The position numbers and the translations under genes are program-made. The notes under the pieces were generated by a model. It worked only from the letters and a program-made list of their open reading frames with translations, was not told the DNA's origin and made no database searches. Positions 9,249 to 42,900 of a stretch of DNA of 64,000 nt are shown piece by piece. Source of the stretch: Escherichia coli (lineage in GTDB: Bacteria > Pseudomonadota > Gammaproteobacteria > Enterobacterales > Enterobacteriaceae); assembly GCF_003334785.1 (NCBI RefSeq), contig NZ_QOWV01000008.1; one strand, given 5' to 3'. The stretch's first letter is position 1. Every line of letters begins with the position of its first letter.

Positions 9249-9273
9249 ATTTTGGCGGAAGATCACAGGAGTC
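9249..9273. repeat. attL core: duplicated 3' end of tRNA-Sec
   Basis: 25-nt attttggcggaagatcacaggagtc identical to 21074..21098; sequence diverges immediately on both sides. Confidence 0.85.
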
Positions 9274-9399
9274 AAAATTGACATATAACAATTTGATTCC
9301 AATCGTTTATATTTATCAGCTCTAATTCATTTATACACATCCTTATACACATAATATCTGTCGATTAATTTTTACACGTATCTTCACGCACGTTAACTC

Positions 9400-9700
9400 A
9401 GGAAAAAAATTTTTTTTCGAAAGAACTGTTCACACTGTTCACCTTTCTGTTTTCTCCTTTTATTTCAGTTTGATAGGTGGTGAATAATGGGTGAAGGGTG
9501 AACATTCGATTCTTCACCTCCGGCATTCTGCCGGTGTGACTTGTGCAGGGGATTAATCCTCCGCACTGAAATCACACAGGGAGAAAAAAGTTTTTTTGAT
9601 TTGATTGTTCATCTTTCGTTTTTCTCTTTTAATTTCAGTGTGATAACGGGTGAATATACGGTGAAGGGTGAACAGTGGATTGTTCACTTTCGGGGAATTC
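9400..9700. repeat. crr-like region: two ~120-bp direct repeats carrying TGTTCACC/GGTGAACA iterons
   Basis: Unit 1 about 9403..9525 and unit 2 about 9583..9700 share (a)8-9ttttttt...tgttca...tttctc...atttcagt.tgata..ggtgaa...ggtgaagggtgaaca; iteron motif matches the P4 alpha-binding repeats. Confidence 0.7.
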
Positions 9701-9705
9701 AGGGA

Positions 9706-9731
9706 TAAAAAAAGACCGGCAGATGCCGGTC
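9706..9731 (-). terminator. rho-independent terminator after alpha
   Basis: Minus-strand hairpin gaccggcatctgccggtc followed by TTTTTTTA, directly 3' of the alpha stop at 9739. Confidence 0.7.
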
Positions 9732-9738
9732 AGATGAG

Positions 9739-12072
9739 TCAGGCTGTTGCAGGGTCGTCACATTTCGGCAGCCAGTCGCCGTAGCTTTCCTCTTTCAGCG
9801 TCAGGTTGGTCTGTATCCCCTGTTTGGTATGGCGCTTCTCGTAATTCAGTCCGTATTCCTTCAGCATCACCGGCAGCCCCAGCCCGAACATTTTCAGACT
9901 GAGTACATTCCGGTAGCCGTTTGCCTCCATGTAGGCCAGATAGGCGTGATAGAGGTATTTACGGTAATTACGCGGGATGATACTGGCGTTCCCCATATAC
10001 ATGCCGCTGGTCTGCGGCAGGGTTTCCAGATAGCCGATAAAATCAAACGTCGGGTCGGCATCCCGTTTGATGTTCAGTGCCTCGTCTGAGTTCTGCTGGG
10101 ACTGAAGCAGTGACCGGGCGAGCATCGGGTCGCTGAACTTCTGCATCAGGTAACGCACGATGACCGCCAGCTCGCGGGTGATTTTGTCCTTAAGCTGCGG
10201 GTCGCGCTCCTGCGGGGCTATCTGTTCCGGGAAGTGAATAATCACCCGCCGGCGTGACACGCCGCCGCTGCGGTCGGTGAAGCGCATCGGGTTATTGTTC
10301 ACGGCCAGAATCACCGCCGGGATGTGCGTGGAGTACGCATCCCGGTATTTCGGGTCAACGGACACCGCATCGCCGCCGGTGATGGCCTTGAGTCCGGCAC
10401 CGTCGCCGCTCCATTTTTCCTGGTCCGGCAGGCGTATCAGTGAGAAGCCAGTTAACGCGGCACGTTCACGCGGGGATTCCAGCGTCTCGATGGTGGCCGA
10501 CGTGGCGTTATCCTCACCGGCCAGCAGGGTGGCTATTTCGGCCATGATACTTTTGCCGCTGCCGCCGGGACCGGTCACCTCCAGAAAGAGCTGCCAGTCG
10601 TAGCGGTTTGCCAGCACCATAAACAGTGCGGCCAGAATCACGTCGCGTTTTTCCGCACGGCCACCGGCGGCACGGTCAAGCCAGCGCCAGAATGCGGGGG
10701 CGTGGGTTTCCAGCGTTTCACCTTCCACCGGCGGGGTGAAATCCACATCGCACAGGGCGCGCATCCAGTGTGACGGACTGTGCGGGTGGAACGTGCCGTT
10801 CTGCGTGTCGAGCACGCCGTTACGAAAGCCAATCAGGCGGCGGGAGGGGGCTTCCTGCTGCGGAATAATCAGCTTCAGGGTGTCCACCACGGAGGCCACC
10901 TTCCCGGAGGAGAACGGCGCGCGCAGACGCTGAAACAGCCCGGCCACATCCCGGGCAAAGTCCTGTGGTGGCAGCACCTTCCAGACACCATTTTCATAGC
11001 GGGACAGAAGCTGGCCGTTGGCATCGACCGCGAGCGCCTCGCCGTAATGCTCATAGATACGCATGGCCTTTTCGCTGGTACTCATGGCGGAAAACTCCGC
11101 TTCGCTCATGGTGTCGAACGGGCTTTCAGCCGGTGGCCGGATGGCATCATAAATGGCCTTACGGGTGGTTTCCCCGCCGTACTGCGTGAAGGCATCATTC
11201 CAGTCACCGAAGACCGGCGGCAGGGCAACAACGCCCTCACACGCATCTGCGGCTGCGGCGGCTTTTTTCTGGCCGTCACCGCTGAGGTCACGGTCTGCGG
11301 CAAGGACAATCTGACAGGCCGGATGCTTCTGCCGGGCAAGGCTGGCCAGAGAAAGGAGGTTCACGGAAGAAAGCGCCACCATCACCGTTTCACCGGTCAG
11401 GTGATGTACGGTAAGTGCGGTCGCGTATCCCTCCGCTATCCACAGACGTTTTCCGGCCTGATTCTGTCCTTCAAGGGTGTGACAGGTGCCCCTGACCTGT
11501 CCGCCTTTCAGGGTGCGCTTACGGCCGTCAGCACTGATTAACTGAAGGTTAACCAGTTCGCCGCTGTCGTCATACAGTGGCACCACAAGGTCACCGGCGC
11601 GCCAGCTCACGCCACCGGCTCTGTGTGTGCCGGTCAGCATCCGGCATTCCCGGCCGGGAAAGCCCTTGCGGGTCAGGTAGGCGTTACCGGTTCCGGGACG
11701 GGTTTTCGCCATCAGGGTTTGTGCCAGTGCGGCGGCGTTCTTCCGGGCGGCTTCTGTTTCAGCACCGGCGGCGGCCGTCACTGCCGGGTCAGCCGGGGGC
11801 AGGCAGCCGGTCACGGCAGCCACCTTTGCGGCCGCGTCGGACGGGGAAACACCAAACACCTTTTCAACCAGTTTCAGGCCGTCACCGGCACCACACTGAT
11901 TGCAGTACCAGGTGCCGCGCCCCTCCCTGTCATCAAAACGGAAACGGTCACTTCCGCCACAGACCGGACAGGGCTGATGACGGTTTTTCAGCACCTGAAT
12001 CCCCAGCGACGGGAGAATACGCGGCCAGTGGCCGAGCGCATGGCTGACGGTGGCGGTTACGTTCATTTTCAT
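9739..12072 (-). CDS. P4 alpha-type primase/helicase
   Basis: 777 aa, the size of P4 alpha; N-terminal CPVCGG...CNQCG zinc-binding primase motif; Walker A GPGGSGKS in C-terminal half. Confidence 0.9.
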   Translation of the reverse strand: MKMNVTATVSHALGHWPRILPSLGIQVLKNRHQPCPVCGGSDRFRFDDREGRGTWYCNQCGAGDGLKLVEKVFGVSPSDAAAKVAAVTGCLPPADPAVTAAAGAETEAARKNAAALAQTLMAKTRPGTGNAYLTRKGFPGRECRMLTGTHRAGGVSWRAGDLVVPLYDDSGELVNLQLISADGRKRTLKGGQVRGTCHTLEGQNQAGKRLWIAEGYATALTVHHLTGETVMVALSSVNLLSLASLARQKHPACQIVLAADRDLSGDGQKKAAAAADACEGVVALPPVFGDWNDAFTQYGGETTRKAIYDAIRPPAESPFDTMSEAEFSAMSTSEKAMRIYEHYGEALAVDANGQLLSRYENGVWKVLPPQDFARDVAGLFQRLRAPFSSGKVASVVDTLKLIIPQQEAPSRRLIGFRNGVLDTQNGTFHPHSPSHWMRALCDVDFTPPVEGETLETHAPAFWRWLDRAAGGRAEKRDVILAALFMVLANRYDWQLFLEVTGPGGSGKSIMAEIATLLAGEDNATSATIETLESPRERAALTGFSLIRLPDQEKWSGDGAGLKAITGGDAVSVDPKYRDAYSTHIPAVILAVNNNPMRFTDRSGGVSRRRVIIHFPEQIAPQERDPQLKDKITRELAVIVRYLMQKFSDPMLARSLLQSQQNSDEALNIKRDADPTFDFIGYLETLPQTSGMYMGNASIIPRNYRKYLYHAYLAYMEANGYRNVLSLKMFGLGLPVMLKEYGLNYEKRHTKQGIQTNLTLKEESYGDWLPKCDDPATA

Positions 12073-12086
12073 GGTGTTGTTCTCCT

Positions 12087-12407
12087 TCAGTGCAGTACCG
12101 GCGCTTTTATGTGACGGGCACAGAGTTCATCCATCACAACCAGCCCGAGAAAGGACAGCGACGGCGCGGCCTTCAGGGGGCCGGATTCCATTAAATCTTC
12201 CAGCAGGGCACAGGCTATCTGACGCCCTTTTTCCTCACCGTGCTGGCGCAGATAAAAGCCTTCCAGCTCAGCGGCGATGGCCGCCTCCAGTGACTCAAGG
12301 GTGAGATGCGGGTAGCGGTGCTGACGTTCGCACACGGTCAGCCAGGCACAGGCGACAGCGCGACGGTAAAGGGCAGCGCGTAAGACGGGCGGTAAGGGGG
12401 TTTTCAT
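12087..12407 (-). CDS. hypothetical protein, P4-like satellite backbone
   Basis: 106-aa ORF immediately upstream of alpha, same strand. Confidence 0.5.
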
Positions 12408-12542
12408 TTGTTTTCCTCCCTGTGACAGATGACTGCATTCCGTGCCGGTTGCATTAACTGATAAGGCATATCTGCGTCTCCTGAAGACGTGCGTATCCCT
12501 GCGCGAATACGCACATTTAATTTTTCGGGTGTCGTTTTTTAA

Positions 12543-12998
12543 TTACAGATAATTGCGGTAACTGTTATCCGGGGTGATTTCCGGGTCAGGCTCCGTGCGG
12601 GGAATTTCCCGCCATTCCCGCGCCACCGGTGCCGCCCGGCTGACCGGAACAGGGTCCTGCGGGTAAATATCCAGATATTTCTCCCGCCATTTCTGTAATT
12701 CCGGGTCTCCGGCCATTTCTTTCAGTACCGCATGCCGGTTTACGGGGCTGCGTTTAAACAGGTCAGGACGGTCACAGGTAAATTCCCGCAGAAAACGCCC
12801 CAGCGGGATGTCTGTGGTGCGCCCGTCGGCGATGATACGCACAAGGATACTGAATTTACGGCGGTACGGGTTCCAGACAATTTCCGGGCAGCGGTACGGC
12901 ATTTCCCACGGAATACCGTCTTCCAGAATGCCGACCACGGCCACATCGGGAAAACCGGCAGAACGGTAAATCTCACCGGGCTGGGGAAAATCAAACAT
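12543..12998 (-). CDS. hypothetical protein, P4-like satellite backbone
   Basis: 151-aa ORF, same strand as alpha, in the P4 left operon position. Confidence 0.5.
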   Translation of the reverse strand: MFDFPQPGEIYRSAGFPDVAVVGILEDGIPWEMPYRCPEIVWNPYRRKFSILVRIIADGRTTDIPLGRFLREFTCDRPDLFKRSPVNRHAVLKEMAGDPELQKWREKYLDIYPQDPVPVSRAAPVAREWREIPRTEPDPEITPDNSYRNYL

Positions 12999-13857
12999 GC
13001 GTCCTGTCTCCCCGGTCTTTCTGCTGGGCGAGAAAATCGCGGCACAGGCCTTTGGCTTTCAGCTCATTCAGCACAAAATCAATATCTTCATTCAGGTAAC
13101 TGAAAATATGCGGAATGTAGAGCTGATGCAGGCCGGAGAGTTCACGGTGAATCAAATCACCCCCAACAAACTGGGATACGGCGCTGGCGCGGTTGAGCTT
13201 ATGGTAAGCCTCAATGCTGAGGTGTTCACGGGCGTCATGACGCGCTGAGACGGTCTGAGGGGCTTTTTTATTACGCACGGGACACCTCCACCACCGGCAG
13301 ACGGGCAGCAAGGGAGAGCACATAGTCACGGACAAGGGAACGGCGGGCGCTGCGTTCATCACCGGCGACGGTGCGAAGCATACAGATACGGGGATGACGG
13401 TCTGTGCGACGGACAGCCGCAAACACAAAGACAAATTCAGGGTGTGAGGGGGTAAGGGTTGTAGCCATGATGGCAGCCTCCTGTGAATAGCAAATAACGC
13501 TATCGCCGGAGTTCTCACGCTCGATGGCGATAGCCCAGACGGGGGTGAGAATACCGGCTTCACAGGATACCGGCCAGCCCGGAGGCTGCCCCGCCTGAGC
13601 TACCATTGACTCAGAGGCATAACATGCGATTGCGAACAGGATCATACCTGCACGGCAAACCACACGCCACACCATAATCTGGTGCTCTGTGGCGTTGATT
13701 GCGACACAAAAAAAGACGCATGGCGCGTCATATGTCGCCTGTGAATTGCTCGGGTTCTCACGCCCGGCTGCCGATTTTGCGGCAGCGGAAAAACTATATC
13801 CGCAAATGCCGGAAAAAGGCAAGCCAGAAAAAGGGAGTTTTTGCAGAGCGGGCATCA
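12999..13857 (-). other. P4-like immunity/early region with unresolved small ORFs
   Basis: Overlapping ORFs in several frames (12991..13563, 13271..13906, 12997..13248); only C-terminal parts look protein-like; position corresponds to P4 kil/cI-RNA/eps. Confidence 0.3.
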
Positions 13858-14124
13858 TCATGCGTCGTACCCCCGTTTGCGTCCGGCAATGCGTCCGGCC
13901 ATCCATGCGGTGACTTCAGAGTGCAGCCAGGCCACATTTTTACCGCCAAGACTCACCTGCGGCGGAAATTCCCCCTTACGGATGAGTTCGTAGATGGTCG
14001 AGCGTGACAGGCCGCACAGGTGCATCACTTCCGGAAGACGTAAAAAACGCTCCTGTGTGATGTCCGGCAGCGGCATCAGTGGCGTCACAGGGGCGGGAGA
14101 CGGGGAAGAAAAAACAGCTTGCAT
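13858..14124 (-). CDS. AlpA/Vis-family DNA-binding regulator/excisionase
   Basis: 88-aa ORF with [48 protein letters not shown], typical AlpA-type HTH; true start may be the internal Met (MPLPDITQ). Confidence 0.8.
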
Positions 14125-14403
14125 CGGGCTACCTCGTTAATGTCCATACAGCACCGGATAAGTCCGTCCGGCTTCAGGTAGCGCTTTATTTTGTGAATAT
14201 TTTCAGCAGACGCAACAGGGGGGATTTGTTCCGGCAGCCTTACAATGCTTGTGTATTTTTTGTTCATCTCCACTTAAAGTCATTTAAAGCCACTTAAAGC
14301 AATTCGTAATTTTTATAGTGAAATACAAATCGTTTTTTCTTATTCATTCCCGGCGAATTAATAAAAACAAACAGTAATAAACAGCACAAAAAGCCCATCA
14401 ACG

Positions 14404-14508
14404 GGTGAACAGTGGTGAACAGACGGTGAACAGTCATTACTGCGATTGTTCACCCTTTAACTTACTGTATTACTTATCTTTTTTCTTATGGTGAACAGAG
14501 GTGAACAG
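14404..14508. repeat. ori-like iteron cluster
   Basis: Five direct GGTGAACAG copies (14404, 14414, 14425, 14490, 14500) plus one inverted TGTTCACC (14447) between vis and sid. Confidence 0.7.
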
Positions 14509-14586
14509 TAAAATATAAAAAAACAAACAGTAAGCCGGTTTTTCCTACGACCTTTTCCTGGCTTGCCGGTGTGAGGATGAGTCTCC

Positions 14587-14604
14587 TGTGTCAGGGCTGG
14601 CACA
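14587..14604 (+). promoter_or_regulatory. TGT-N12-ACA activator site of a P2/P4-type late promoter upstream of sid
   Basis: tgtgtcagggctggcaca lies ~75-90 bp upstream of the sid ATG; Ogr/Delta-activated late promoters carry TGT-N12-ACA near -55. Confidence 0.5.
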
Positions 14605-14676
14605 TCTGCAATGCGTCGTGTTGTTGTCCGGTGTACGTCACAATTTTCTTAACCTGAAGTGACGAGGAGCCGGAAA

Positions 14677-15411
14677 ATGTCTGACAACACCATCCCTGAA
14701 TATCTGCAACCCGCACTGGCACAACTGGAAAAGGCCAGAGCCGCCCACCTTGAGAACGCCCGACTGATGGATGAGACCGTCACGGCCATTGAACGGGCAG
14801 AGCAGGAAAAAAATGCGCTGGCGCAGGCCGACGGAAATGACGCTGATGACTGGCGCACAGCCTTTCGTGCAGCCGGTGGTGTCCTGAGCGACGAGCTGAA
14901 ACAGCGCCACATTGAGCGCGTGGCACGCCGGGAGCTGGTACAGGAATATGACAATCTGGCCGTGGTGCTGAATTTTGAACGTGAACGCCTGAAAGGGGCG
15001 TGTGACAGCACGGCTACCGCCTACCGGAAGGCACATCATCACCTTCTGAGTCTGTATGCAGAGCATGAGCTGGAACACGCCCTGAATGAAACCTGTGAGG
15101 CGCTTGTCCGGGCAATGCATCTGAGCATTCTGGTACAGGAAAATCCGATCGCCAACACCACCGGCCATCAGGGCTACGTCGCACCCGATAAGGCTGTCAT
15201 GCAGCAGGTGAAATCATCGCTGGAACAGAAAATTAAACAGATGCAAATCAGCCTCAGCGGCGAGCCGGTTCTCCGGCTGACCGGACTGTCAGCGGCAACA
15301 CTTCCGCACATGGATTATGAGGTGGCAGGCACACCGGCACAGCGCAAGGTGTGGCAGGACAAAATAGACCAGCAGGGAGCAGAGCTTAAGGCCAGAGGAC
15401 TGCTGTCATGA
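14677..15411 (+). CDS. sid: Sid-like capsid size-determination protein
   Basis: 244 aa from ATG 14677 preceded by GAGGAG; alanine-rich coiled-coil protein; first gene of a sid-delta-psu operon. Confidence 0.75.
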   Translation: MSDNTIPEYLQPALAQLEKARAAHLENARLMDETVTAIERAEQEKNALAQADGNDADDWRTAFRAAGGVLSDELKQRHIERVARRELVQEYDNLAVVLNFERERLKGACDSTATAYRKAHHHLLSLYAEHELEHALNETCEALVRAMHLSILVQENPIANTTGHQGYVAPDKAVMQQVKSSLEQKIKQMQISLSGEPVLRLTGLSAATLPHMDYEVAGTPAQRKVWQDKIDQQGAELKARGLLS

Positions 15412-15908
15412 TTTACTGCCCGTCGTGTGGACATGTTGCTCACACCCGCCGCGCACATTTTATGGACGATGGCACCAAGATAATGATTGCACAGTGCCGG
15501 AATATTTATTGCTCTGCGACATTTGAAGCGAGTGAAAGCTTTTTCTCTGACAGTAAAGATTCAGGAATGGAATACATTTCAGGCAAACAGAGATACCGCG
15601 ATTCACTGACGTCAGCCTCCGGTAGCATGAAGCGCCCGAAAAGAATGCTTGTTACCGGATATTGTTGTCGGAGATGTAAAGGCCTTGCACTGTCAAGAAC
15701 ATCGCGGCGTCTGTCTCAGGAAGTCACCGAGCGTTTTTATGTGTGCACGGATCCGGGCTGTGGTCTGGTGTTTAAAACGCTTCAGACCATCAACCGCTTC
15801 ATTGTCCGCCCGGTCACGCCGGACGAACTGGCAGAAAGCCTGCATGAAAAACAGGAACTGCCGCCAGTACGCTTAAAAACACAATCATATTCGCTGCGTC
15901 TGGAATGA
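15408..15908 (+). CDS. delta: Delta, duplicated Ogr-type zinc-finger late activator
   Basis: 166 aa with two Cys4 motifs (CPSCGH...CRNIYC and CRRCKG...CTDPGCG); start overlaps sid stop. Confidence 0.8.
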   Translation: MIYCPSCGHVAHTRRAHFMDDGTKIMIAQCRNIYCSATFEASESFFSDSKDSGMEYISGKQRYRDSLTSASGSMKRPKRMLVTGYCCRRCKGLALSRTSRRLSQEVTERFYVCTDPGCGLVFKTLQTINRFIVRPVTPDELAESLHEKQELPPVRLKTQSYSLRLE

Positions 15909-15981
15909 GGGCTGCCGGTTAACACCGGCCGTCGCCGCACACCGTATTTTTATTCTTCAGCATGATGAGAAAGAGATAACG

Positions 15982-16554
15982 ATGGAAAGCACAGCCTTAC
16001 AGCAGGCCTTTGACACCTGTCAGAATAACAAAGCAGCATGGCTGCAACGCAAAAATGAGCTGGCTGCGGCCGAACAGGAATATCTGCGGCTTCTGTCAGG
16101 AGAAGGCAGAAACGTCAGTCGCCTGGACGAATTACGCAATATTATCGAAGTCAGAAAATGGCAGGTGAATCAGGCCGCCGGTCGTTATATTCGTTCGCAT
16201 GAAGCCGTTCAGCACATCAGCATCCGCGACCGGCTGAATGATTTTATGCAGCAGCACGGCACAGCACTGGCGGCGGCACTGGCACCGGAGCTGATGGGCT
16301 ACAGTGAGCTGACGGCCATTGCCCGAAACTGTGCCATACAGCGTGCCACAGATGCCCTGCGTGAAGCCCTTCTGTCCTGGCTTGCGAAGGGTGAAAAAAT
16401 TAATTATTCCGCACAGGATAGCGACATTTTAACGGCCATTGGATTCAGACCTGACGCGGCTTCGGTGGATGACAGCCGTGAAAAATTCACCCCTGCGCAG
16501 AACATGATTTTTTCGCGTAAAAGTGCGCAACTGGCATCACGTCAGTCTGTGTAA
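15982..16554 (+). CDS. psu: Psu polarity-suppression protein
   Basis: 190 aa, MESTALQQAFDTCQNNKAAWLQRKNELAAAEQEY..., recalled as P4 Psu. Confidence 0.8.
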   Translation: MESTALQQAFDTCQNNKAAWLQRKNELAAAEQEYLRLLSGEGRNVSRLDELRNIIEVRKWQVNQAAGRYIRSHEAVQHISIRDRLNDFMQQHGTALAAALAPELMGYSELTAIARNCAIQRATDALREALLSWLAKGEKINYSAQDSDILTAIGFRPDAASVDDSREKFTPAQNMIFSRKSAQLASRQSV

Positions 16555-16718
16555 AATTCCCCGAAAATCCGCCCGTTTTTACTGAAAAAAGCCATGCATC
16601 GATAAGGTGCATGGCTTTGCATGCGTTTTCCTGCCTCATTTTCTGCAGATCGCGCCACGCCCGGCGTGGCCTGAGCGTGTCAGCGCAACTGCATTAAAAC
16701 CATCCCACAAAGCGGGCG

Positions 16719-16737
16719 GGCGAGGCGGGGAAAGCAC
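16719..16737. other. cos site (P2/P4-type 19-nt cohesive end)
   Basis: Exact ggcgaggcggggaaagcac, ~165 bp downstream of psu as in P4. Confidence 0.8.
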
Positions 16738-16979
16738 TGCGCGCTTACTTAGATGCGTGAATTTATTTATATCACTGAAGTATATCCCTAAGCTCATTTC
16801 TCAAAGGGCCTATGGTTGCACAAGGTTGTACCATGGCATTCAAAACTTTTTAAACCAAGAATGACAATTTCATTATTAGGCCGGAATAGTTACTAATTTT
16901 AGTATAGGTTGCGATTGTTTAACGCATTTTTTATTATGATGCAGATTTTATTATTACTAATGGGGTGCAAAAAACACGT

Positions 16980-18269
16980 ATGAAAAAAAATGTTGGTAAC
17001 CGCAATAAAAATTCTGATGTGCTTATTCTTAAAGGTATGTTGAACAATTTAAAAGATGGTTTAAATAATTTTGAATTATTGCTTAAATTGCAGTTTAAAA
17101 TATTGGTGTGCGTGATGAGATGTGAGCGGAAAATTAAGTTTCTTAAAAAGAATAATGCTCATTTAAGGTCGGTGTTAAAAAAATCAAGACTTCCAAAAGA
17201 AAAATCTCTGGCAGTAAAAGAAAAAATTAAATACAATTCTGAAGTAATTACTGCTGAAAAATTCAAGATATATACGTATAAAATGTTTGGCGATGCTGTT
17301 GCATTTTTATACATCGATAAATATACAATTAAACAGTTATACTACAATGTACATAATTACAATGTTAAAGAAACGTCGGGGGATTTGAGCGGTAAGTCTG
17401 GATTGCGAGAGGAATGGGAATGCGTAAAACTTGCATGTGATAATAAAGTTCCAGCTCTGTTGCATGATATTACAATGAGTATAAGGCATGGAGATGTATC
17501 ACTTTTAGGTAAAGATGAGCCATTTATTATTGAGATGAAATCAAGCTCAAATACAAATAAGAGAGTTGAGCGGCAAAAATCTAACCTTGAAAAATTAGGA
17601 AGTTTCATAGCAAAAGACGAAGCTGAAAATTTTCGAGGGATTCCATTGTTAATCAGGAAAAATTTGTTAACTGAAGAGGAATCATATTCTCAGGTTTTAA
17701 ATGAGTGTCTTAATGATTGTCGCAGCAAAGGAATGGCTTTGGTTGAAGCTGAAAAAGGATTTTATATCTGCGCAGTTAGAGAAGGGAATATGGCTTCTAT
17801 GCTAGAAAATATAGATTTTGATGAAAAAAAAGAAGTTTTTCCTGTATTTCTCAATCAATATAAAAATAATGGGGAGTGGCTACCATTAACACCATTTACA
17901 CTATTAATTAACGATCCTTACGATCTCCATGATTTTATCGAAGGGGAATTAACAATAGCTTGTTTTTTAATGCTCGATGAATACAAAAAAATTGCTATAG
18001 AACTAGGCTATGAATTAGTTTTTGTTTCTAATGATGAATATAGTATCTTGTTAAAAAGAATTGGTGAAGATATTATATTTGGTGTTTCCTGGCAAATGTT
18101 GTTAAGAGTTCCATTAGAGATGATGTCCATGTCATGGTTGATAAAAGAAAGTATTAATATATATAGTAACTCCCTAGAAAATAGCACCCATAATGATGAA
18201 TTAAATCAGGGGCAGGGAAATACTAAAAATTCATTATTCGAAAAATACAAGAATTTATTTTCTTACTAA
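16980..18269 (+). CDS. hypothetical cargo protein A, possible PD-(D/E)xK nuclease
   Basis: ORF 16965..18269 (GTG) or ATG 16980; strongly AT-rich, Lys/Asn-rich; motif LHDITMSIRHGDVSLLGKDEPFIIEMK; no homologue recognised. Confidence 0.6.
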   Translation: MKKNVGNRNKNSDVLILKGMLNNLKDGLNNFELLLKLQFKILVCVMRCERKIKFLKKNNAHLRSVLKKSRLPKEKSLAVKEKIKYNSEVITAEKFKIYTYKMFGDAVAFLYIDKYTIKQLYYNVHNYNVKETSGDLSGKSGLREEWECVKLACDNKVPALLHDITMSIRHGDVSLLGKDEPFIIEMKSSSNTNKRVERQKSNLEKLGSFIAKDEAENFRGIPLLIRKNLLTEEESYSQVLNECLNDCRSKGMALVEAEKGFYICAVREGNMASMLENIDFDEKKEVFPVFLNQYKNNGEWLPLTPFTLLINDPYDLHDFIEGELTIACFLMLDEYKKIAIELGYELVFVSNDEYSILLKRIGEDIIFGVSWQMLLRVPLEMMSMSWLIKESINIYSNSLENSTHNDELNQGQGNTKNSLFEKYKNLFSY

Positions 18270-18301
18270 TTAAGCATTGTAATTATATTTGATTTTTTCT
18301 A

Positions 18302-18335
18302 CAGGCTTGGACGGAATCATATAGCTCCAAGCCTG
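18302..18335. terminator. bidirectional hairpin between the convergent cargo genes
   Basis: caggcttgga (18302..18311) pairs with tccaagcctg (18326..18335); flanked by T-rich sequence. Confidence 0.5.
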
Positions 18336-18370
18336 TTGTGTCGGTATCAAAAAGAAAGTGATATTATTGT

Positions 18371-19744
18371 TTATCTAATATATTTTGTTACTTCCATATT
18401 ATCTTCATCGTCAAAAGAGTACTCAACCATCATACGACTATTTTTACCTGACTTAATATCTTGAAGCCAAGCTGAGGCAACCCTAGGGTCTAAATGCTGT
18501 TTTCTACTCAGCTCATTATTTTTTAGCCTATCAAGCCTTATTGCTCTTTGAAGAGTTTTATCGATGTAGTCTTCCAAATCAATGGACAACCTCCTTTTTG
18601 GATATAAATATTGGTATTCATCACACAATAGTACTCCTGGTAATTTAATTTCGCGTAGGTCGAAAGAATACCAACTATAGTTTTTAGACTCATTAGCTAA
18701 TTCCGAAACTAGATGAGCCCCATTTTGTTGTAAGAGAGATATTTTGTGATCGATGCTAATGTCAGATATTTCTCTTAAAGACTCAAAATGCATGTTTTCG
18801 TAGATAGTATTTAATAAAATACTCTCCATGTAAGAGTAAAAATCAGTACCATCGATGATAATATTAGTTTCATTGTAGACTGCAAGAGACATAAGATATA
18901 TGAAGAAAACTGCGGGAGTACTATTACCTCTGTTTATATCAAGTCTAAGGGAGTTGACATAATCAGGCGGAGAGTTTGAGAAAATTTCTCTTATTAACCA
19001 GTCTGGAATAGTGGTTCTTGTTAGAATGTCAGCGTTCAAACTTGAACGACATAAAAAAATACACATCTTTAATTTTAATTTTATTGAAAATGATGGGAAT
19101 AAATGATCGATGAAAGATAAAATACATGTATACTCTGCTAAGTCTGTTTGTTGCAACTTTTCTTTTATTTCATTTTCAAGCATTTTTAATTTAAAAAAAT
19201 CATTCCTTTTTTCTAATATTTCCCAATGAAATAATTGCTCCTGAGCGTACGCATGCCCCTCTAAAATAGCTAGCATGCTTAAAGGAATGTTTAGGATTTC
19301 TTGATAATTATTAACATACCCAAAGAAATGGACTCTGATATACACACCCATATCGTCATCATATTGTAATGATGCTTTAATATTTTTATAATTTAATTTA
19401 TTAGTGCTGTTGTTTTTGAAGTGATAATGTAAAGTAATTTCAGTATCATCAACTAATAAATTATCAAAAGCCTCCTTTGTTTCATATTTAAAATAGTTAT
19501 ATAGCCGACATGAATAATTTAACCCCCAGTGAGTTGTAGAACAATCAAGTAAATGGATTGTTTCATGGAGATATGTTTTATAAAATTCAATTTCGCTATC
19601 ATCAAAATCATATATGCTTTTACTGTCTATGATATTTTGTGCTTGCGGTAAACTTATATTTAATTCATCGTTTGAAATCTCAATTAAATGTGATGAAAAA
19701 TCATAAGAACCCAATGTTTTGCTGTTAAATATACATCCGCTCAT
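18371..19744 (-). CDS. hypothetical cargo protein B, HExxH motif (possible zinc metallopeptidase)
   Basis: 457 aa, AT-rich; N-terminal YLHETIHLLDCSTTH; start ATG overlaps the integrase stop (ATGA at 19741..19744). Confidence 0.6.
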   Translation of the reverse strand: MSGCIFNSKTLGSYDFSSHLIEISNDELNISLPQAQNIIDSKSIYDFDDSEIEFYKTYLHETIHLLDCSTTHWGLNYSCRLYNYFKYETKEAFDNLLVDDTEITLHYHFKNNSTNKLNYKNIKASLQYDDDMGVYIRVHFFGYVNNYQEILNIPLSMLAILEGHAYAQEQLFHWEILEKRNDFFKLKMLENEIKEKLQQTDLAEYTCILSFIDHLFPSFSIKLKLKMCIFLCRSSLNADILTRTTIPDWLIREIFSNSPPDYVNSLRLDINRGNSTPAVFFIYLMSLAVYNETNIIIDGTDFYSYMESILLNTIYENMHFESLREISDISIDHKISLLQQNGAHLVSELANESKNYSWYSFDLREIKLPGVLLCDEYQYLYPKRRLSIDLEDYIDKTLQRAIRLDRLKNNELSRKQHLDPRVASAWLQDIKSGKNSRMMVEYSFDDEDNMEVTKYIR

Positions 19745-20916
19745 AGCAAATCCCCTAAAAGATAATCAGAGTACCATTGAATCATCGTTTTCCTTTGAGA
19801 AAAATATTGTGCGTGATTATAGGTTCCTCGGATATTGTTCTTATCAACATGTGCTAATTGCATTTCAATCCAGGTACTATCAAATCCCTGTTCATGTAGG
19901 ATTGTTGACATTGTATGTCTAAAACCGTGACCTGTAGCACGTCCTTTGTAACCAAGTAACTCAATCACTTGTGAAACACTTTCTTTTGAAATTGGTTTGC
20001 TACGATTGTTCCTGCCAATAAAAATATAGGGATAATGGCCGGTGATAGGCTTTAGCTGTTTAAAGAGGTCTACCACCTGAGTAGACAAAGGTACAATATG
20101 TGGTCTGCGCATTTTCATACGTTCCGCTGGTATCTCCCATATACCTTTTTCGAGGTCTACTTCTTCCCACGTAGCAAAGCGCATCTCCTGCGTTCTTACA
20201 CCAGTCAGCATGACTATCTTCGTAGCATTTTTGGTGATGATGCTACCGGTATAAGCTTCGAGATCCCGAATAAAATGAGGCAATTCTTCGGCAGATAGAA
20301 ATGGATGATGTTTTTGCTTAGGAACGGCCAGAGCGATGGCTAAATCAGGCGCAGGATTGTATTCAGCGCGGCCAGTTATGATTGCGTAGCGATAAACCTC
20401 ACCGCACCTCTGACGTACCTTACGTGTTTTCTCTAGTGCTCCACGCTTCTCTATTCGTCGCAACACTTCAAGAAGTTCTAAGGGTTTGATTTCACTAATA
20501 GGACGTTTACCAATGAACGGGAAAACATCTTGCTCAAATGTTTTAATAATTTCTTCGCGGTAGGCAAGTGTCCAGCGATCGGCTTTATTTGAGTGCCACT
20601 CACGACATATAGCCTCGAATGAGTTTTCTGTTGAGAGCTGCTGTGCCAGCTTTTGGGCTTTACGTTCTTCCACTGGGTCTATGCCGTTTGCAACCTGCTT
20701 CCGAGCTGTATCGCGTTTCTCACGTGCTTCAGCTAGGCTCACAAGGTCGTAGCTACCAAATGACATTAACCGCGCTTTTCCGGCAAAGCGGAAACGGAAA
20801 CGCCAGCCCTTCGAGCCATCGGGATTGATAAGCAATGACAGGCCCTGCCCGTCGTTCAATGTGTATGGCTTGTCTTGGGGCTTTGCTCGTTTGATTTGTA
20901 TATCTGTAAGTGCCAT
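19741..20916 (-). CDS. int: P4-family tyrosine integrase
   Basis: 391 aa; N-terminus MALTDIQIKRAKPQDKPYTLNDGQGLSLLINPDGSKGWRFRFRFAGK typical of P4-type integrases; C-terminal catalytic region with HGFRHT...Y; adjacent to the tRNA. Confidence 0.9.
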   Translation of the reverse strand: MALTDIQIKRAKPQDKPYTLNDGQGLSLLINPDGSKGWRFRFRFAGKARLMSFGSYDLVSLAEAREKRDTARKQVANGIDPVEERKAQKLAQQLSTENSFEAICREWHSNKADRWTLAYREEIIKTFEQDVFPFIGKRPISEIKPLELLEVLRRIEKRGALEKTRKVRQRCGEVYRYAIITGRAEYNPAPDLAIALAVPKQKHHPFLSAEELPHFIRDLEAYTGSIITKNATKIVMLTGVRTQEMRFATWEEVDLEKGIWEIPAERMKMRRPHIVPLSTQVVDLFKQLKPITGHYPYIFIGRNNRSKPISKESVSQVIELLGYKGRATGHGFRHTMSTILHEQGFDSTWIEMQLAHVDKNNIRGTYNHAQYFSQRKTMIQWYSDYLLGDLL

Positions 20917-21073
20917 GTGTATAAGCCAAAAATATGTATAAAAAATCTATACACATCACTATACATATTTTTCATGGATTCAGGGAGATCTTGTCGGACG
21001 GTTACGGATGAGTGATTTACTATATGTTTTGAAAATAAAGGATTTTTAGACTCTCTCGGATGGTGACGGAAGA

Positions 21074-21098
21074 ATTTTGGCGGAAGATCACAGGAGTC
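21074..21098. repeat. attR core overlapping the 3' end of selC
   Basis: Same 25-nt sequence as 9249..9273. Confidence 0.85.
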
Positions 21099-21172
21099 GA
21101 ACCTGCCCGGGACCGCTGGCGGCCCCAACTGGATTTGAAGTCCAGCCGCCTCACCGGAGACGACGATCTTCC
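21078..21172 (-). tRNA. selC: tRNA-Sec (selenocysteine, UCA anticodon)
   Basis: Reverse complement reads ggaagatcgtcgtctccggtgaggcggctggacttcaaatccagttggggccgccagcggtcccgggcaggttcgactcctgtgatcttccgcca, the 95-nt E. coli selC sequence. Confidence 0.95.
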
Positions 21173-38808: not shown

Positions 38809-39633
38809 CTATTTCTTCTCTGTAATTTTTACACTGTTTTCCAACTGCTTGATGCTGACCTGCGGGGTCGGCAACTCCTCAGGCATGGTTCCGCCAAGTT
38901 CCTGAATGGTTTGCATCACCTTGCTACCCACGTCAAAGTGTGTGGTATTAGCTTGCTGTTTTGAATTCACGCCATCCCGCTTGAGTTTTTCTTCTGTTTG
39001 GGTAGCTCGAAAGAGATTAGCCGCCAGTTCTGTTGAACCCATATGATCCAGGATCTTCTGATTCTTTTTCAGCCCCTTCCGCTGATGAATAGCTTTCTGA
39101 TCTAATCCACCATACAGCCCCTGGTAACCATGATTCTGAAATATGGCGAAATCAGTAGCTGTCGCTACCCCAGCTTGCTGTGCTGCCTCAACCAATTGTT
39201 TGTTATGTTCTTTCAACTCATTTCTCAGAAACAGACGCTTTTCGTCTTCACGAAGTTGCTTAAATGCTTCATCGTCAGCAAGCTCCTGCCGTCGGGTCTG
39301 GATAGCAAAATAAGTCTGCCCTGCCGCAATGACCGGTTTCGCAGGGTCGCCGTTTTGTACTACCAGGTAACAGGCATAGCGGGAGAGTACGATGTCTTTT
39401 AATGCTCTTTTGGCATTTGAGCCAATTTTGACCATATCGAGGATCTCCTCGAAATGGTCATCAATTGTGTGACCACTGTTCTCACAGGCTTCTTTGGCGC
39501 GCGTTAATACAGGTATAAAGTGACGATACTCTGAATAACCCAGTAGTTTCCCAAGTTGTCTTGCTGACCATTGTTCTGCTCCGTTTGCATTAATCAGTTT
39601 TATCTCTTCAAAAGGTTGATGATGTTCGTTCAT
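38809..39633 (-). CDS. dinD: DNA damage-inducible protein D
   Basis: 274 aa from MNEHHQPFEEIKLINANGAEQWSARQLGKLLGY. Confidence 0.8.
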   Translation of the reverse strand: MNEHHQPFEEIKLINANGAEQWSARQLGKLLGYSEYRHFIPVLTRAKEACENSGHTIDDHFEEILDMVKIGSNAKRALKDIVLSRYACYLVVQNGDPAKPVIAAGQTYFAIQTRRQELADDEAFKQLREDEKRLFLRNELKEHNKQLVEAAQQAGVATATDFAIFQNHGYQGLYGGLDQKAIHQRKGLKKNQKILDHMGSTELAANLFRATQTEEKLKRDGVNSKQQANTTHFDVGSKVMQTIQELGGTMPEELPTPQVSIKQLENSVKITEKK

Positions 39634-39678
39634 TGCCCACTCCATGTGATATCAATTGCAAAGAAAGTAAATCTGTAA

Positions 39679-39854: not shown

Positions 39855-40718
39855 TTATTCAATATTCTGAATCTGCTCGCGCATCTGCTCAATCAACACT
39901 TTCAGCTCAATCGCGGAGTTTGTCACTTCGGCATTGATAGACTTCGACGCAAGAGTGTTCGACTCGCGGTTGAACTCCTGCATCATAAAGTCCAGACGAC
40001 GACCAACGGCTTCTTTTTTCTTCAGAATGTTGTAGGTCTCTTTGACATGCGCTTCGAGGCGGTCCAGTTCTTCGGCAACGTCAATTCGTTGTGCCAGCAG
40101 AACCAACTCCTGCTCCAGACGGTTGTTTTCCAACTGAACCTGAGCATCTTCCAGCTTCGCGACCAAGCGTTCACGCTGCCATTGCAGGATTTCCGGCATA
40201 TGGGAGCGGACTTTGACCACTTCGGCGGTGACGCCTTCCAGACGCTGCTCGATCAATGCTTTCAGTGCCTGACCTTCGGTTTCGCGCGCGACAATAAAGT
40301 CGTCCAGCGTACCATCCAGCGCCGCGAGAATTTCAGCGGCAATGGCGTCAAGATCCTGCTCCTGGGCTGCCATCACGCCCGGCCAGCGTAGAATATCAAC
40401 CGGGTTGATTTCCCCTTCGTCACTCTGCATTTTTACCCAGTTCGCGGCAGTTACCAGCTGTTTAGCCAGTTTTTCGTTGAGGATCAGCTCACCTTGCGCG
40501 CTAACATCTGGCTCATAGCGCAGGGTACATTCCACTTTACCGCGCGTCAGGCGAGAACGAATACGCTCGCGAACGACAGGTTCAAGGCTACGGAACTGCT
40601 CCGGCAGACGAAAGTAAGTTTCCAGATAACGCTGGTTTACCGAGCGCATTTCCCAGGTTGCGCTCCCCCATTCACCCTTGATTTCACGCCGGGCGTAGGC
40701 GGTCATACTGCGGATCAT
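39855..40718 (-). CDS. yicC: YicC-family stress-induced protein
   Basis: 287 aa, MIRSMTAYARREIKGEWGSATWEMRSVNQRYLE. Confidence 0.8.
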   Translation of the reverse strand: MIRSMTAYARREIKGEWGSATWEMRSVNQRYLETYFRLPEQFRSLEPVVRERIRSRLTRGKVECTLRYEPDVSAQGELILNEKLAKQLVTAANWVKMQSDEGEINPVDILRWPGVMAAQEQDLDAIAAEILAALDGTLDDFIVARETEGQALKALIEQRLEGVTAEVVKVRSHMPEILQWQRERLVAKLEDAQVQLENNRLEQELVLLAQRIDVAEELDRLEAHVKETYNILKKKEAVGRRLDFMMQEFNRESNTLASKSINAEVTNSAIELKVLIEQMREQIQNIE

Positions 40719-40844
40719 AGACGTTCCTGTTTATAAAAGGAGAGGTGGAAGGATTATAGCCATCGATGCCTTGTCAGGATAGGAATAACCGCCGGAAGTC
40801 CGTATAATGCGCAGCCACATTTGTTTCAAGCCGGAGATTTCAAT

Positions 40845-41561
40845 ATGCGTCCAGCAGGCCGTAGCAATAATCAGGTGCGTCCCGTTACCCTGACTCGTAA
40901 CTATACAAAACATGCAGAAGGCTCGGTGCTGGTCGAATTTGGCGATACCAAAGTGTTGTGTACCGCCTCTATTGAAGAAGGCGTGCCGCGCTTCCTGAAA
41001 GGTCAGGGCCAGGGCTGGATCACCGCAGAGTACGGCATGCTGCCACGTTCTACCCACACCCGTAACGCTCGTGAAGCGGCGAAAGGTAAGCAGGGTGGAC
41101 GCACAATGGAAATCCAGCGTCTGATCGCCCGTGCGCTTCGCGCGGCAGTAGATTTGAAAGCGCTGGGTGAGTTCACCATTACGCTGGACTGCGACGTGCT
41201 TCAGGCTGATGGTGGCACGCGTACCGCTTCGATTACGGGTGCCTGTGTGGCGCTGGCAGATGCGCTACAGAAGCTGGTGGAAAACGGCAAGCTGAAAACC
41301 AACCCGATGAAAGGGATGGTAGCCGCGGTTTCTGTCGGGATTGTGAACGGCGAAGCGGTTTGCGATCTGGAATACGTTGAAGACTCTGCCGCAGAGACCG
41401 ACATGAACGTAGTGATGACCGAAGACGGGCGCATCATTGAAGTGCAGGGGACGGCAGAAGGCGAGCCGTTCACCCATGAAGAGCTACTCACCTTGTTGGC
41501 GCTGGCCCGAGGGGGAATCGAATCCATTGTAGCGACGCAGAAGGCGGCGCTGGCAAACTGA
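40845..41561 (+). CDS. rph: ribonuclease PH, full length
   Basis: 238 aa from [14 protein letters not shown], ending ...ATQKAALAN. Confidence 0.9.
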
Positions 41562-41568
41562 TTTTTAA

Positions 41569-41593
41569 GGCGACTGATGAGTCGCTTTTTTTT
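41569..41593 (+). terminator. rph terminator / pyrE attenuator
   Basis: Hairpin ggcgactgatgagtcgc followed by TTTTTTTT, between rph stop and pyrE start. Confidence 0.75.
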
Positions 41594-41625
41594 GTCTGTA
41601 GAAAAGTAAGATGAGGAGCGAAGGC

Positions 41626-42267
41626 ATGAAACCATATCAGCGCCAGTTTATTGAATTTGCGCTTAGCAAGCAGGTGTTAAAGTTTGGCGAGTTTACGCTG
41701 AAATCCGGGCGTAAAAGCCCCTATTTCTTCAACGCCGGGCTGTTTAATACCGGGCGCGACCTGGCACTGTTAGGCCGTTTTTACGCTGAAGCATTGGTGG
41801 ACTCCGGCATTGAGTTCGATCTGCTGTTTGGCCCTGCTTACAAAGGGATCCCGATTGCCACCACAACCGCCGTGGCGTTGGCGGAGCATCATGACCTGGA
41901 CCTGCCGTACTGCTTTAACCGCAAAGAGGCAAAAGACCACGGTGAAGGCGGCAATCTGGTTGGTAGCGCGTTACAAGGACGCGTAATGCTGGTAGATGAT
42001 GTGATCACCGCCGGAACGGCGATTCGTGAGTCGATGGAAATTATTCAGGCCAATGGCGCGACGCTTGCTGGCGTGTTGATTTCGCTCGATCGTCAGGAAC
42101 GGGGGCGCGGCGAGATTTCGGCGATTCAGGAAGTTGAGCGTGATTACAACTGCAAAGTGATCTCTATCATCACCCTGAAAGATCTGATTGCTTACCTGGA
42201 AGAGAAGCCGGAAATGGCGGAACATCTGGCGGCGGTTAAGGCCTATCGCGAAGAGTTTGGCGTTTAA
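41626..42267 (+). CDS. pyrE: orotate phosphoribosyltransferase
   Basis: 213 aa from [23 protein letters not shown]. Confidence 0.9.
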
Positions 42268-42303
42268 AGAAACTCGCCGGATGAAAATTCATCCGGCGTC
42301 ATA

Positions 42304-42900
42304 TTACTGCAACTGCGCGGCAATTAGCGGCCAGCGGGCGTCAAAATCATCCGTCGGGCGGTATTTAAATTCGCTGCGGACAAAACGTGACAGCATACCT
42401 TCACAGAAGGCCAGGATCTGGCTTGCCAGCAGGGTTTCATCGGTGGTGTAACCTTCACCCTCACGCATTCTCTTTTCACGCAATACCTGGCGCAGCTGCG
42501 CTTCAATACGCTCGAACAGCTGGTTGATGCGCCCTTGCAGGCGATCCTGTTCAAACATTAGCGCATGACCAGTGAGGATGCGGGTCAGGCCAGGATTACG
42601 CTCACCAAAACCGAGAAGCAGCAACACAATCAGACGCAGGCGCGCTGTGGTGTCTTTCTCATCTTTCAGAATCAGATTGATGCGAGTAATCAGGCTATCT
42701 TCGATAAACTCAATCAGGCTATCGAACATGCGGGTCTTACTGGGGAAGTGGCGATACAGTGCCGCTTCGGAAACGCCGACAGAGGCGGCCAGTTTTGCCG
42801 TCGTGATACGTTGGCTTCCATCGCTGGATTCCAGCATCAGCGCCAGAGACTGAAGTATTTCCTCGCGACGGTTCCTTTTCGCAGTTTGTTTTTCTGCCAT
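42304..42900 (-). CDS. slmA: nucleoid occlusion factor SlmA (TetR family)
   Basis: 198 aa from [24 protein letters not shown]. Confidence 0.85.

Follow-up and report, generated by a model that had tools for sequence, protein, structure and literature searches.

The window, that is, the whole stretch of 64,000 nucleotides of Escherichia coli DNA that was analysed, carries rph and pyrE in tandem on the plus strand. The open reading frame of rph occupies positions 40845..41561 (717 nt), running from the ATG at 40845 to the TGA stop codon at 41559..41561, and encodes a full-length RNase PH of 238 aa. The gene pyrE, encoding an orotate phosphoribosyltransferase of 213 aa, is located at 41626..42267. 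The interval 40845-41625 consists of exactly rph and the intercistronic spacer, 41625 being the last intergenic base before the pyrE ATG at 41626. Within the spacer lie a hairpin (41567..41588) and a tract of eight Ts (41586..41593), the latter 32 nt before the pyrE ATG. A GAGGAG motif at 41613..41618 (+), 7 nt before the same ATG, is likely to be the Shine-Dalgarno sequence of pyrE, as judged from the sequence.

Several features flank the two genes. A TATAAT motif was present at 40803-40808, upstream of rph, for which a convincing -35 element at the right spacing was not found, and a promoter scan upstream of rph scored nothing. A perfect 10-pair palindrome, CGCCGGATGAAAATTCATCCGGCG, is located at 42275-42298, directly after the pyrE stop codon and between the convergent genes pyrE and slmA. 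The terminator scan scored this palindrome on the minus strand only, that is, on the slmA side. The longest dinD open reading frame (38809-39645, minus strand) encodes 278 aa, and the annotated MG1655 gene has 825 nt (274 aa); this length difference probably reflects an upstream in-frame ATG only.

Both proteins were assigned to their families by profile search. The Rph protein matched NCBIfam TIGR01966 (ribonuclease PH, equivalog) with 380.8 bits (cut-off 141.5), residues 2-236 aligning end-to-end to profile positions 1-235 of 236. RefSeq labels the gene 'rph: ribonuclease PH' in genomes with 100% identity to the window here. The full-length 238-aa product that had been read from the letters is thus borne out by the open reading frame, its translation and the end-to-end match to TIGR01966. 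By its sequence, the product is an RNase PH of active length, which would be expected to have phosphorolytic 3'-5' exoribonuclease activity. The PyrE protein matched TIGR00336 with 240.6 bits (cut-off 106.8) and had 0 aa differences from that of MG1655.

The 3' end of rph was aligned with the K-12 references NC_000913.3 3813000-3819000 (MG1655) and NC_007779.1 3800000-3849000 (W3110). The window has a run of five Gs at 41511..41515 (+), in codons 223-224, and both MG1655 and W3110 have GGGG at this site, one G fewer. The K-12 pair reads CCCGA-GGGGAATC, and the window counterpart is CCCGAGGGGGAATC. This run is the site of the rph-1 deletion, the loss of one G-C pair in the K-12 W1485 lineage, so the frameshift that the earlier note gave for K-12 MG1655 is real and is also present in W3110, and the alignment proposed as a check found no disturbance of the frame in the window. 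The rph-1 product of MG1655 and W3110 has 228 aa and ends in ...ARGESNPL. Its stop codon corresponds to a TAG at 41530..41532 (+) that is out of frame in the window, and it is separated by 36 nt from the downstream G+C stem of the hairpin, compared with 7 nt for the natural rph stop. RefSeq annotates rph of MG1655 as 'truncated RNase PH' (687 nt) and rph of W3110 as a 'frameshifted' pseudogene. The window and the rph-1 strains share the locus, the attenuator region and an rph 3' end that is nearly identical in its other positions; they differ in the G run, in the length of the product and in the distance from stop codon to stem.

Five Gs, as in the window, were also found by alignment in E. 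albertii and in the GTDB representative E. coli E69. The exact MG1655 81-mer across the rph-1 deletion occurred in 167 of 5,426 complete E. coli genomes, and the carriers were K-12 laboratory strains among the matches listed. In the non-rph-1 genomes that were sampled, the region spans 82 nt, the extra G being present. Since the rph-1 sequence is confined to 167 of the 5,426 genomes, full-length rph is the norm in E. coli. The window lacks the rph-1 allele, and its rph is wild type and ordinary for the species.

The earlier note had concluded from the full-length rph that the strain is not a derivative of MG1655. The conclusion holds; the inference from rph does not, because K-12 substr. RV308 (NZ_LM995446.1 3758261-3760142) also has a full-length rph of 238 aa and differs from MG1655 and W3110 by 1 base in 1,882 bp. 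The rph-1 allele is therefore not universal in K-12 derivatives, and a K-12 derivative with a repaired rph-1, or one that had never acquired the mutation, would show the same reading frame as the window. Such an origin is extremely improbable for this strain. Over 6 kb, the window showed 66 mismatches and 5 gap positions relative to MG1655 (98.8% identity), a stretch in which no difference separates MG1655 from W3110 (100% identity). Against RV308, 1,882 bp of the window contained 25 mismatches, and the locus is not near-identical to MG1655, W3110 or RV308. At the protein level, the window Rph has A138 and T216, and that of K-12 has V138 and I216. A K-12 strain with a repaired rph was rejected on the divergence from MG1655 and RV308. 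It is this sequence divergence that excludes K-12, and an 11.8-kb island at selC, which is present in the window and absent from W3110, adds to it. The 24 kb around rph are identical or nearly so in many human, animal and environmental isolates, for example H3, AST198 and NCTC9087.

The island occupies 9249..21073 and adjoins selC (tRNA-Sec, 21078..21172, minus strand), which was identified with ARAGORN and serves as its integration site. Direct repeats of 28 bp bound the island at 9249-9276 and 21074-21101; they comprise the 3' end of selC and a copy of it. In W3110, selC is located directly beside a rhuM fragment and setC with no insertion, and the island at selC mentioned in the earlier note is thus real, consisting of the tRNA-Sec gene and an 11.8-kb insertion relative to W3110. 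Its integrase is of the tyrosine type (NF007246, 1.3e-86), and its primase matched the P4 family (TIGR01613, 5.5e-31) with 107.6 bits, just under the cut-off of 108.7. The Psu-, ogr/Delta- and Icd-like proteins were named after the RefSeq entries of strain A1, which is 99.6% identical. Together with the tyrosine integrase and the P4-family primase, these proteins identify the island as a P4-like satellite, and the features expected of such an element (an integrase adjacent to a tRNA gene, a primase, psu/delta-type genes and direct repeats) are all present. The whole island was found at a coverage of at least 80% in 296 of 5,426 complete E. coli genomes. Two large open reading frames, 16980-18269 (+, 429 aa) and 18371-19744 (-, 457 aa), separate the psu-like gene from the integrase. 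The psu-integrase interval of P4 satellites is the usual place for variable anti-phage cargo. Neither of the two open reading frames had a match in PADLOC, NCBIfam or Pfam (in Pfam even at E <= 10), and both are annotated as 'hypothetical protein' in RefSeq strain A1.

Between rph and pyrE, the terminator scan and RNA folding identified the pyrE attenuator hairpin at 41567..41588 (+), composed of AAGGCGACT, a GATG loop and AGTCGCTTT. In its G+C core, 41569-41575 (GGCGACT) pairs with 41580-41586, the 3' arm AGTCGC corresponding to 41580-41585, and two upstream As extend the helix to 9 pairs. The hairpin folded with -13.8 kcal/mol (z = -5.1), and 0 of 200 dinucleotide-preserving shuffles folded as well. 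A G+C-rich hairpin with an immediate U-tract is thus present between the two genes, as expected of an attenuator. The rph stop codon lies 7 nt 5' of the G+C stem, a distance short enough for masking of the 5' arm; from what is generally known of ribosome footprints, a ribosome at this stop codon should reach the stem. A scan of 40600-42400 against Rfam at E <= 1 returned no family and no curated model of the pyrE attenuator.

The attenuator had been described as intact. The hairpin and the T-tract are indeed there; one C, however, is missing from the canonical 3' arm. As shown by alignment, MG1655, W3110, E. albertii and E. coli E69 read GAGTCGCCTTTTTTTTG, and the window reads GAGTCGCTTTTTTTTG, with one C fewer. 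The T-tract is preceded by CC in the canonical sequence and by one C (41585) in the window, which places the 1-nt deletion at 41585..41586 (+). The 3' arm is AGTCGC followed by eight Ts in the window and AGTCGCC followed by eight Ts in the canonical sequence, the T run having the same length in both, and the canonical stem GGCGACT/AGTCGCC is not formed in the window. In the whole spacer from rph to pyrE, the window differs from MG1655 in this one C and in nothing else.

The absent C is the partner in the G-C pair that closes the stem, and in the predicted fold G41569 pairs instead with T41586, the first T of the tract, as a G·U pair. Folded with their flanks (43 nt for the canonical sequence and 42 nt for the window), the two alleles gave -15.8 and -13.8 kcal/mol, respectively. 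The 18-nt stem-loop alone gave -11.7 kcal/mol for the canonical allele and -10.0 kcal/mol for the window allele. The predicted loss of stability of the window allele thus amounts to about 1.7-2.0 kcal/mol.

The frequency of the two alleles was determined by exact matching. The window allele (71-mer) occurred in 485 of 5,415 complete E. coli genomes (9.0%), and the canonical allele (72-mer) in 4,576 of 5,415 (84.5%). About 354 of the 5,415 genomes fit neither exact attenuator sequence. In some of these the region is 73 nt long, a length that points to additional Ts in the tract or to other indels.

These counts also bear on the quality of the sequence. The missing C abuts a run of eight Ts, and indel errors are common at such sites in some long-read assemblies, so that a sequencing or assembly error hiding a canonical sequence had to be considered. 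However, 485 independent complete genomes share the exact 71-mer. A 1,001-bp stretch of the window is matched with 100% identity by at least 30 genomes, and three genomes are identical over 24 kb as judged by bit score. Moreover, the change sits in the CC dinucleotide and not in the T run, which is eight in both alleles. An error at this position is very hard to reconcile with these observations, and it was rejected on the recurrence of the allele in 485 genomes. We therefore treat the single-C sequence as a true allele.

To place this allele among related bacteria, the 17-nt hairpin core was searched in a scan with one genome per prokaryotic species. The core was found in the rph-pyrE context in about 25 enterobacterial species, a number obtained with an exact 17-mer and thus blind to hairpins that differ elsewhere (Salmonella and Klebsiella were not retrieved). 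The species with the core included E. albertii, Escherichia sp. E1V33, several Citrobacter, Leclercia, Enterobacter, Pseudocitrobacter, Silvania and Kosakonia. All of the retrieved rph-pyrE loci outside the window had GTCGCC followed by 7-9 Ts. With CC present in about 25 enterobacterial species, the single-C attenuator is, by sequence comparison, the derived state. Identity of at least 99% to the window over the 24 kb around rph was found in 480 genomes. The 480 carriers of the haplotype and the 485 carriers of the allele agree closely, although this is a match of counts and not of individual genomes, and the agreement is consistent with a single origin. The window allele probably tracks one haplotype. 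The wild-type arrangement that had been claimed for this locus consequently stands for rph only, since the attenuator, one nucleotide short in its stem, is of a derived type that a minority of genomes carry.

The way in which such an attenuator acts is known from the literature on K-12 and Salmonella, from which the UTP- and ribosome-coupled mechanism proposed here for the window was taken. In work of Jensen from 1993 and of Bonekamp, Poulsen and Jensen from 1984-85, low UTP reportedly slows the polymerase so that the ribosome translating rph masks the 5' arm of the hairpin, and at high UTP the polymerase is said to escape, the hairpin to form and transcription to terminate in the U-tract. Applied to the window, expression of pyrE would be set at the intercistronic attenuator, a predicted intrinsic terminator 7 nt past the rph stop. 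When UTP is scarce, the polymerase would lag, and a ribosome at the rph stop would cover the 5' arm of the hairpin and allow read-through into pyrE. When UTP is plentiful, the polymerase would outrun the ribosome, the hairpin would form and transcription would stop at the U-tract. This coupling should be preserved in the window because rph stays in frame up to its natural stop codon. In MG1655 and W3110, in contrast, the ribosome would halt 36 nt short of the stem. The 1-bp deletion of MG1655 has been reported to lower the level of orotate phosphoribosyltransferase, and translation of rph must approach the attenuator loop for transcription of pyrE (PMC2784333, PMC4166923). The low pyrE expression that the earlier note attributed to rph-1 is backed by the same two papers, which also report that growth in minimal medium repeatedly selects mutations returning the rph stop towards the attenuator loop (PMC2784333, PMC4166923).

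In the single-C allele, the closing G-C pair would be replaced by a G·U pair that borrows the first U of the tract, and the terminator is accordingly predicted to be slightly weaker. The deletion could be functionally important if the attenuator were substantially weakened, with pyrE expressed at a higher level and less responsive to UTP, which would make the allele a natural regulatory variant. The lost C closes the stem beside the U-tract, the hairpin is 1.7-2.0 kcal/mol less stable, and the free U-run after the stem is shorter by one. That CC is kept by about 25 enterobacterial species, and by 84.5% of the E. coli genomes, suggests constraint on this position, and laboratory evolution of K-12 repeatedly selects changes in the attenuator region (PMC2784333, PMC4166923). 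Set against these points, a helix of 9 pairs remains, with -13.8 kcal/mol, z = -5.1 and eight Ts following, and an allele that 9% of complete genomes carry, across many hosts, is not strongly deleterious. On balance, we regard a substantial regulatory effect of the deletion as unlikely. For the same locus, it is a tentative suggestion at best that the single-C allele raises basal read-through into pyrE and resets the pyrimidine set-point in about 9% of complete E. coli.

We favour the reading that rph and pyrE form an ordinary bicistronic operon here, in a natural E. coli outside K-12, with a variant attenuator that is slightly weaker and near-neutral, and we consider this reading likely to be correct. 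Because the helix and U-tract still compare comfortably with those of working terminators, read-through would be expected to rise modestly at most, and the single-C allele probably has little or no phenotypic consequence as far as the folding predictions go. Compared with the wild-type rph-pyrE operon of E. coli, as found in RV308 and natural isolates, the window has the same gene order, the same 238-aa Rph and the same placement of the hairpin relative to the stop codon. The loop, the 5' arm, the eight Ts and PyrE are also identical; the difference is the absence of one C from the 3' arm, with a G·U closing pair.

The attenuator region is likewise affected in the 82-bp rph-pyrE deletion obtained in laboratory evolution of MG1655 (PMC2784333, PMC4166923). 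That deletion alters the position at which rph translation ends with respect to the hairpin. It was selected in the laboratory as a suppressor of rph-1 and acts by displacing the stop codon, whereas the window carries a natural 1-nt deletion in the hairpin itself, in a background in which rph is intact.

The rph-pyrE system is already known in detail, and the sole new detail is the minority attenuator allele; knowledge of the system as such is unchanged by the findings in the window. The window comes from a natural isolate and not from a K-12 laboratory strain, which gives the context for other findings in this stretch. The strain and its relatives should be free of the pyrimidine pseudo-auxotrophy of MG1655 and W3110. 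Natural strains are polymorphic for the classic pyrE attenuator, a 1-nt deletion that weakens the stem being present in about 9% of complete genomes. This natural pair of alleles would offer a cheap test of the importance of the closing base pair of the attenuator in vivo.
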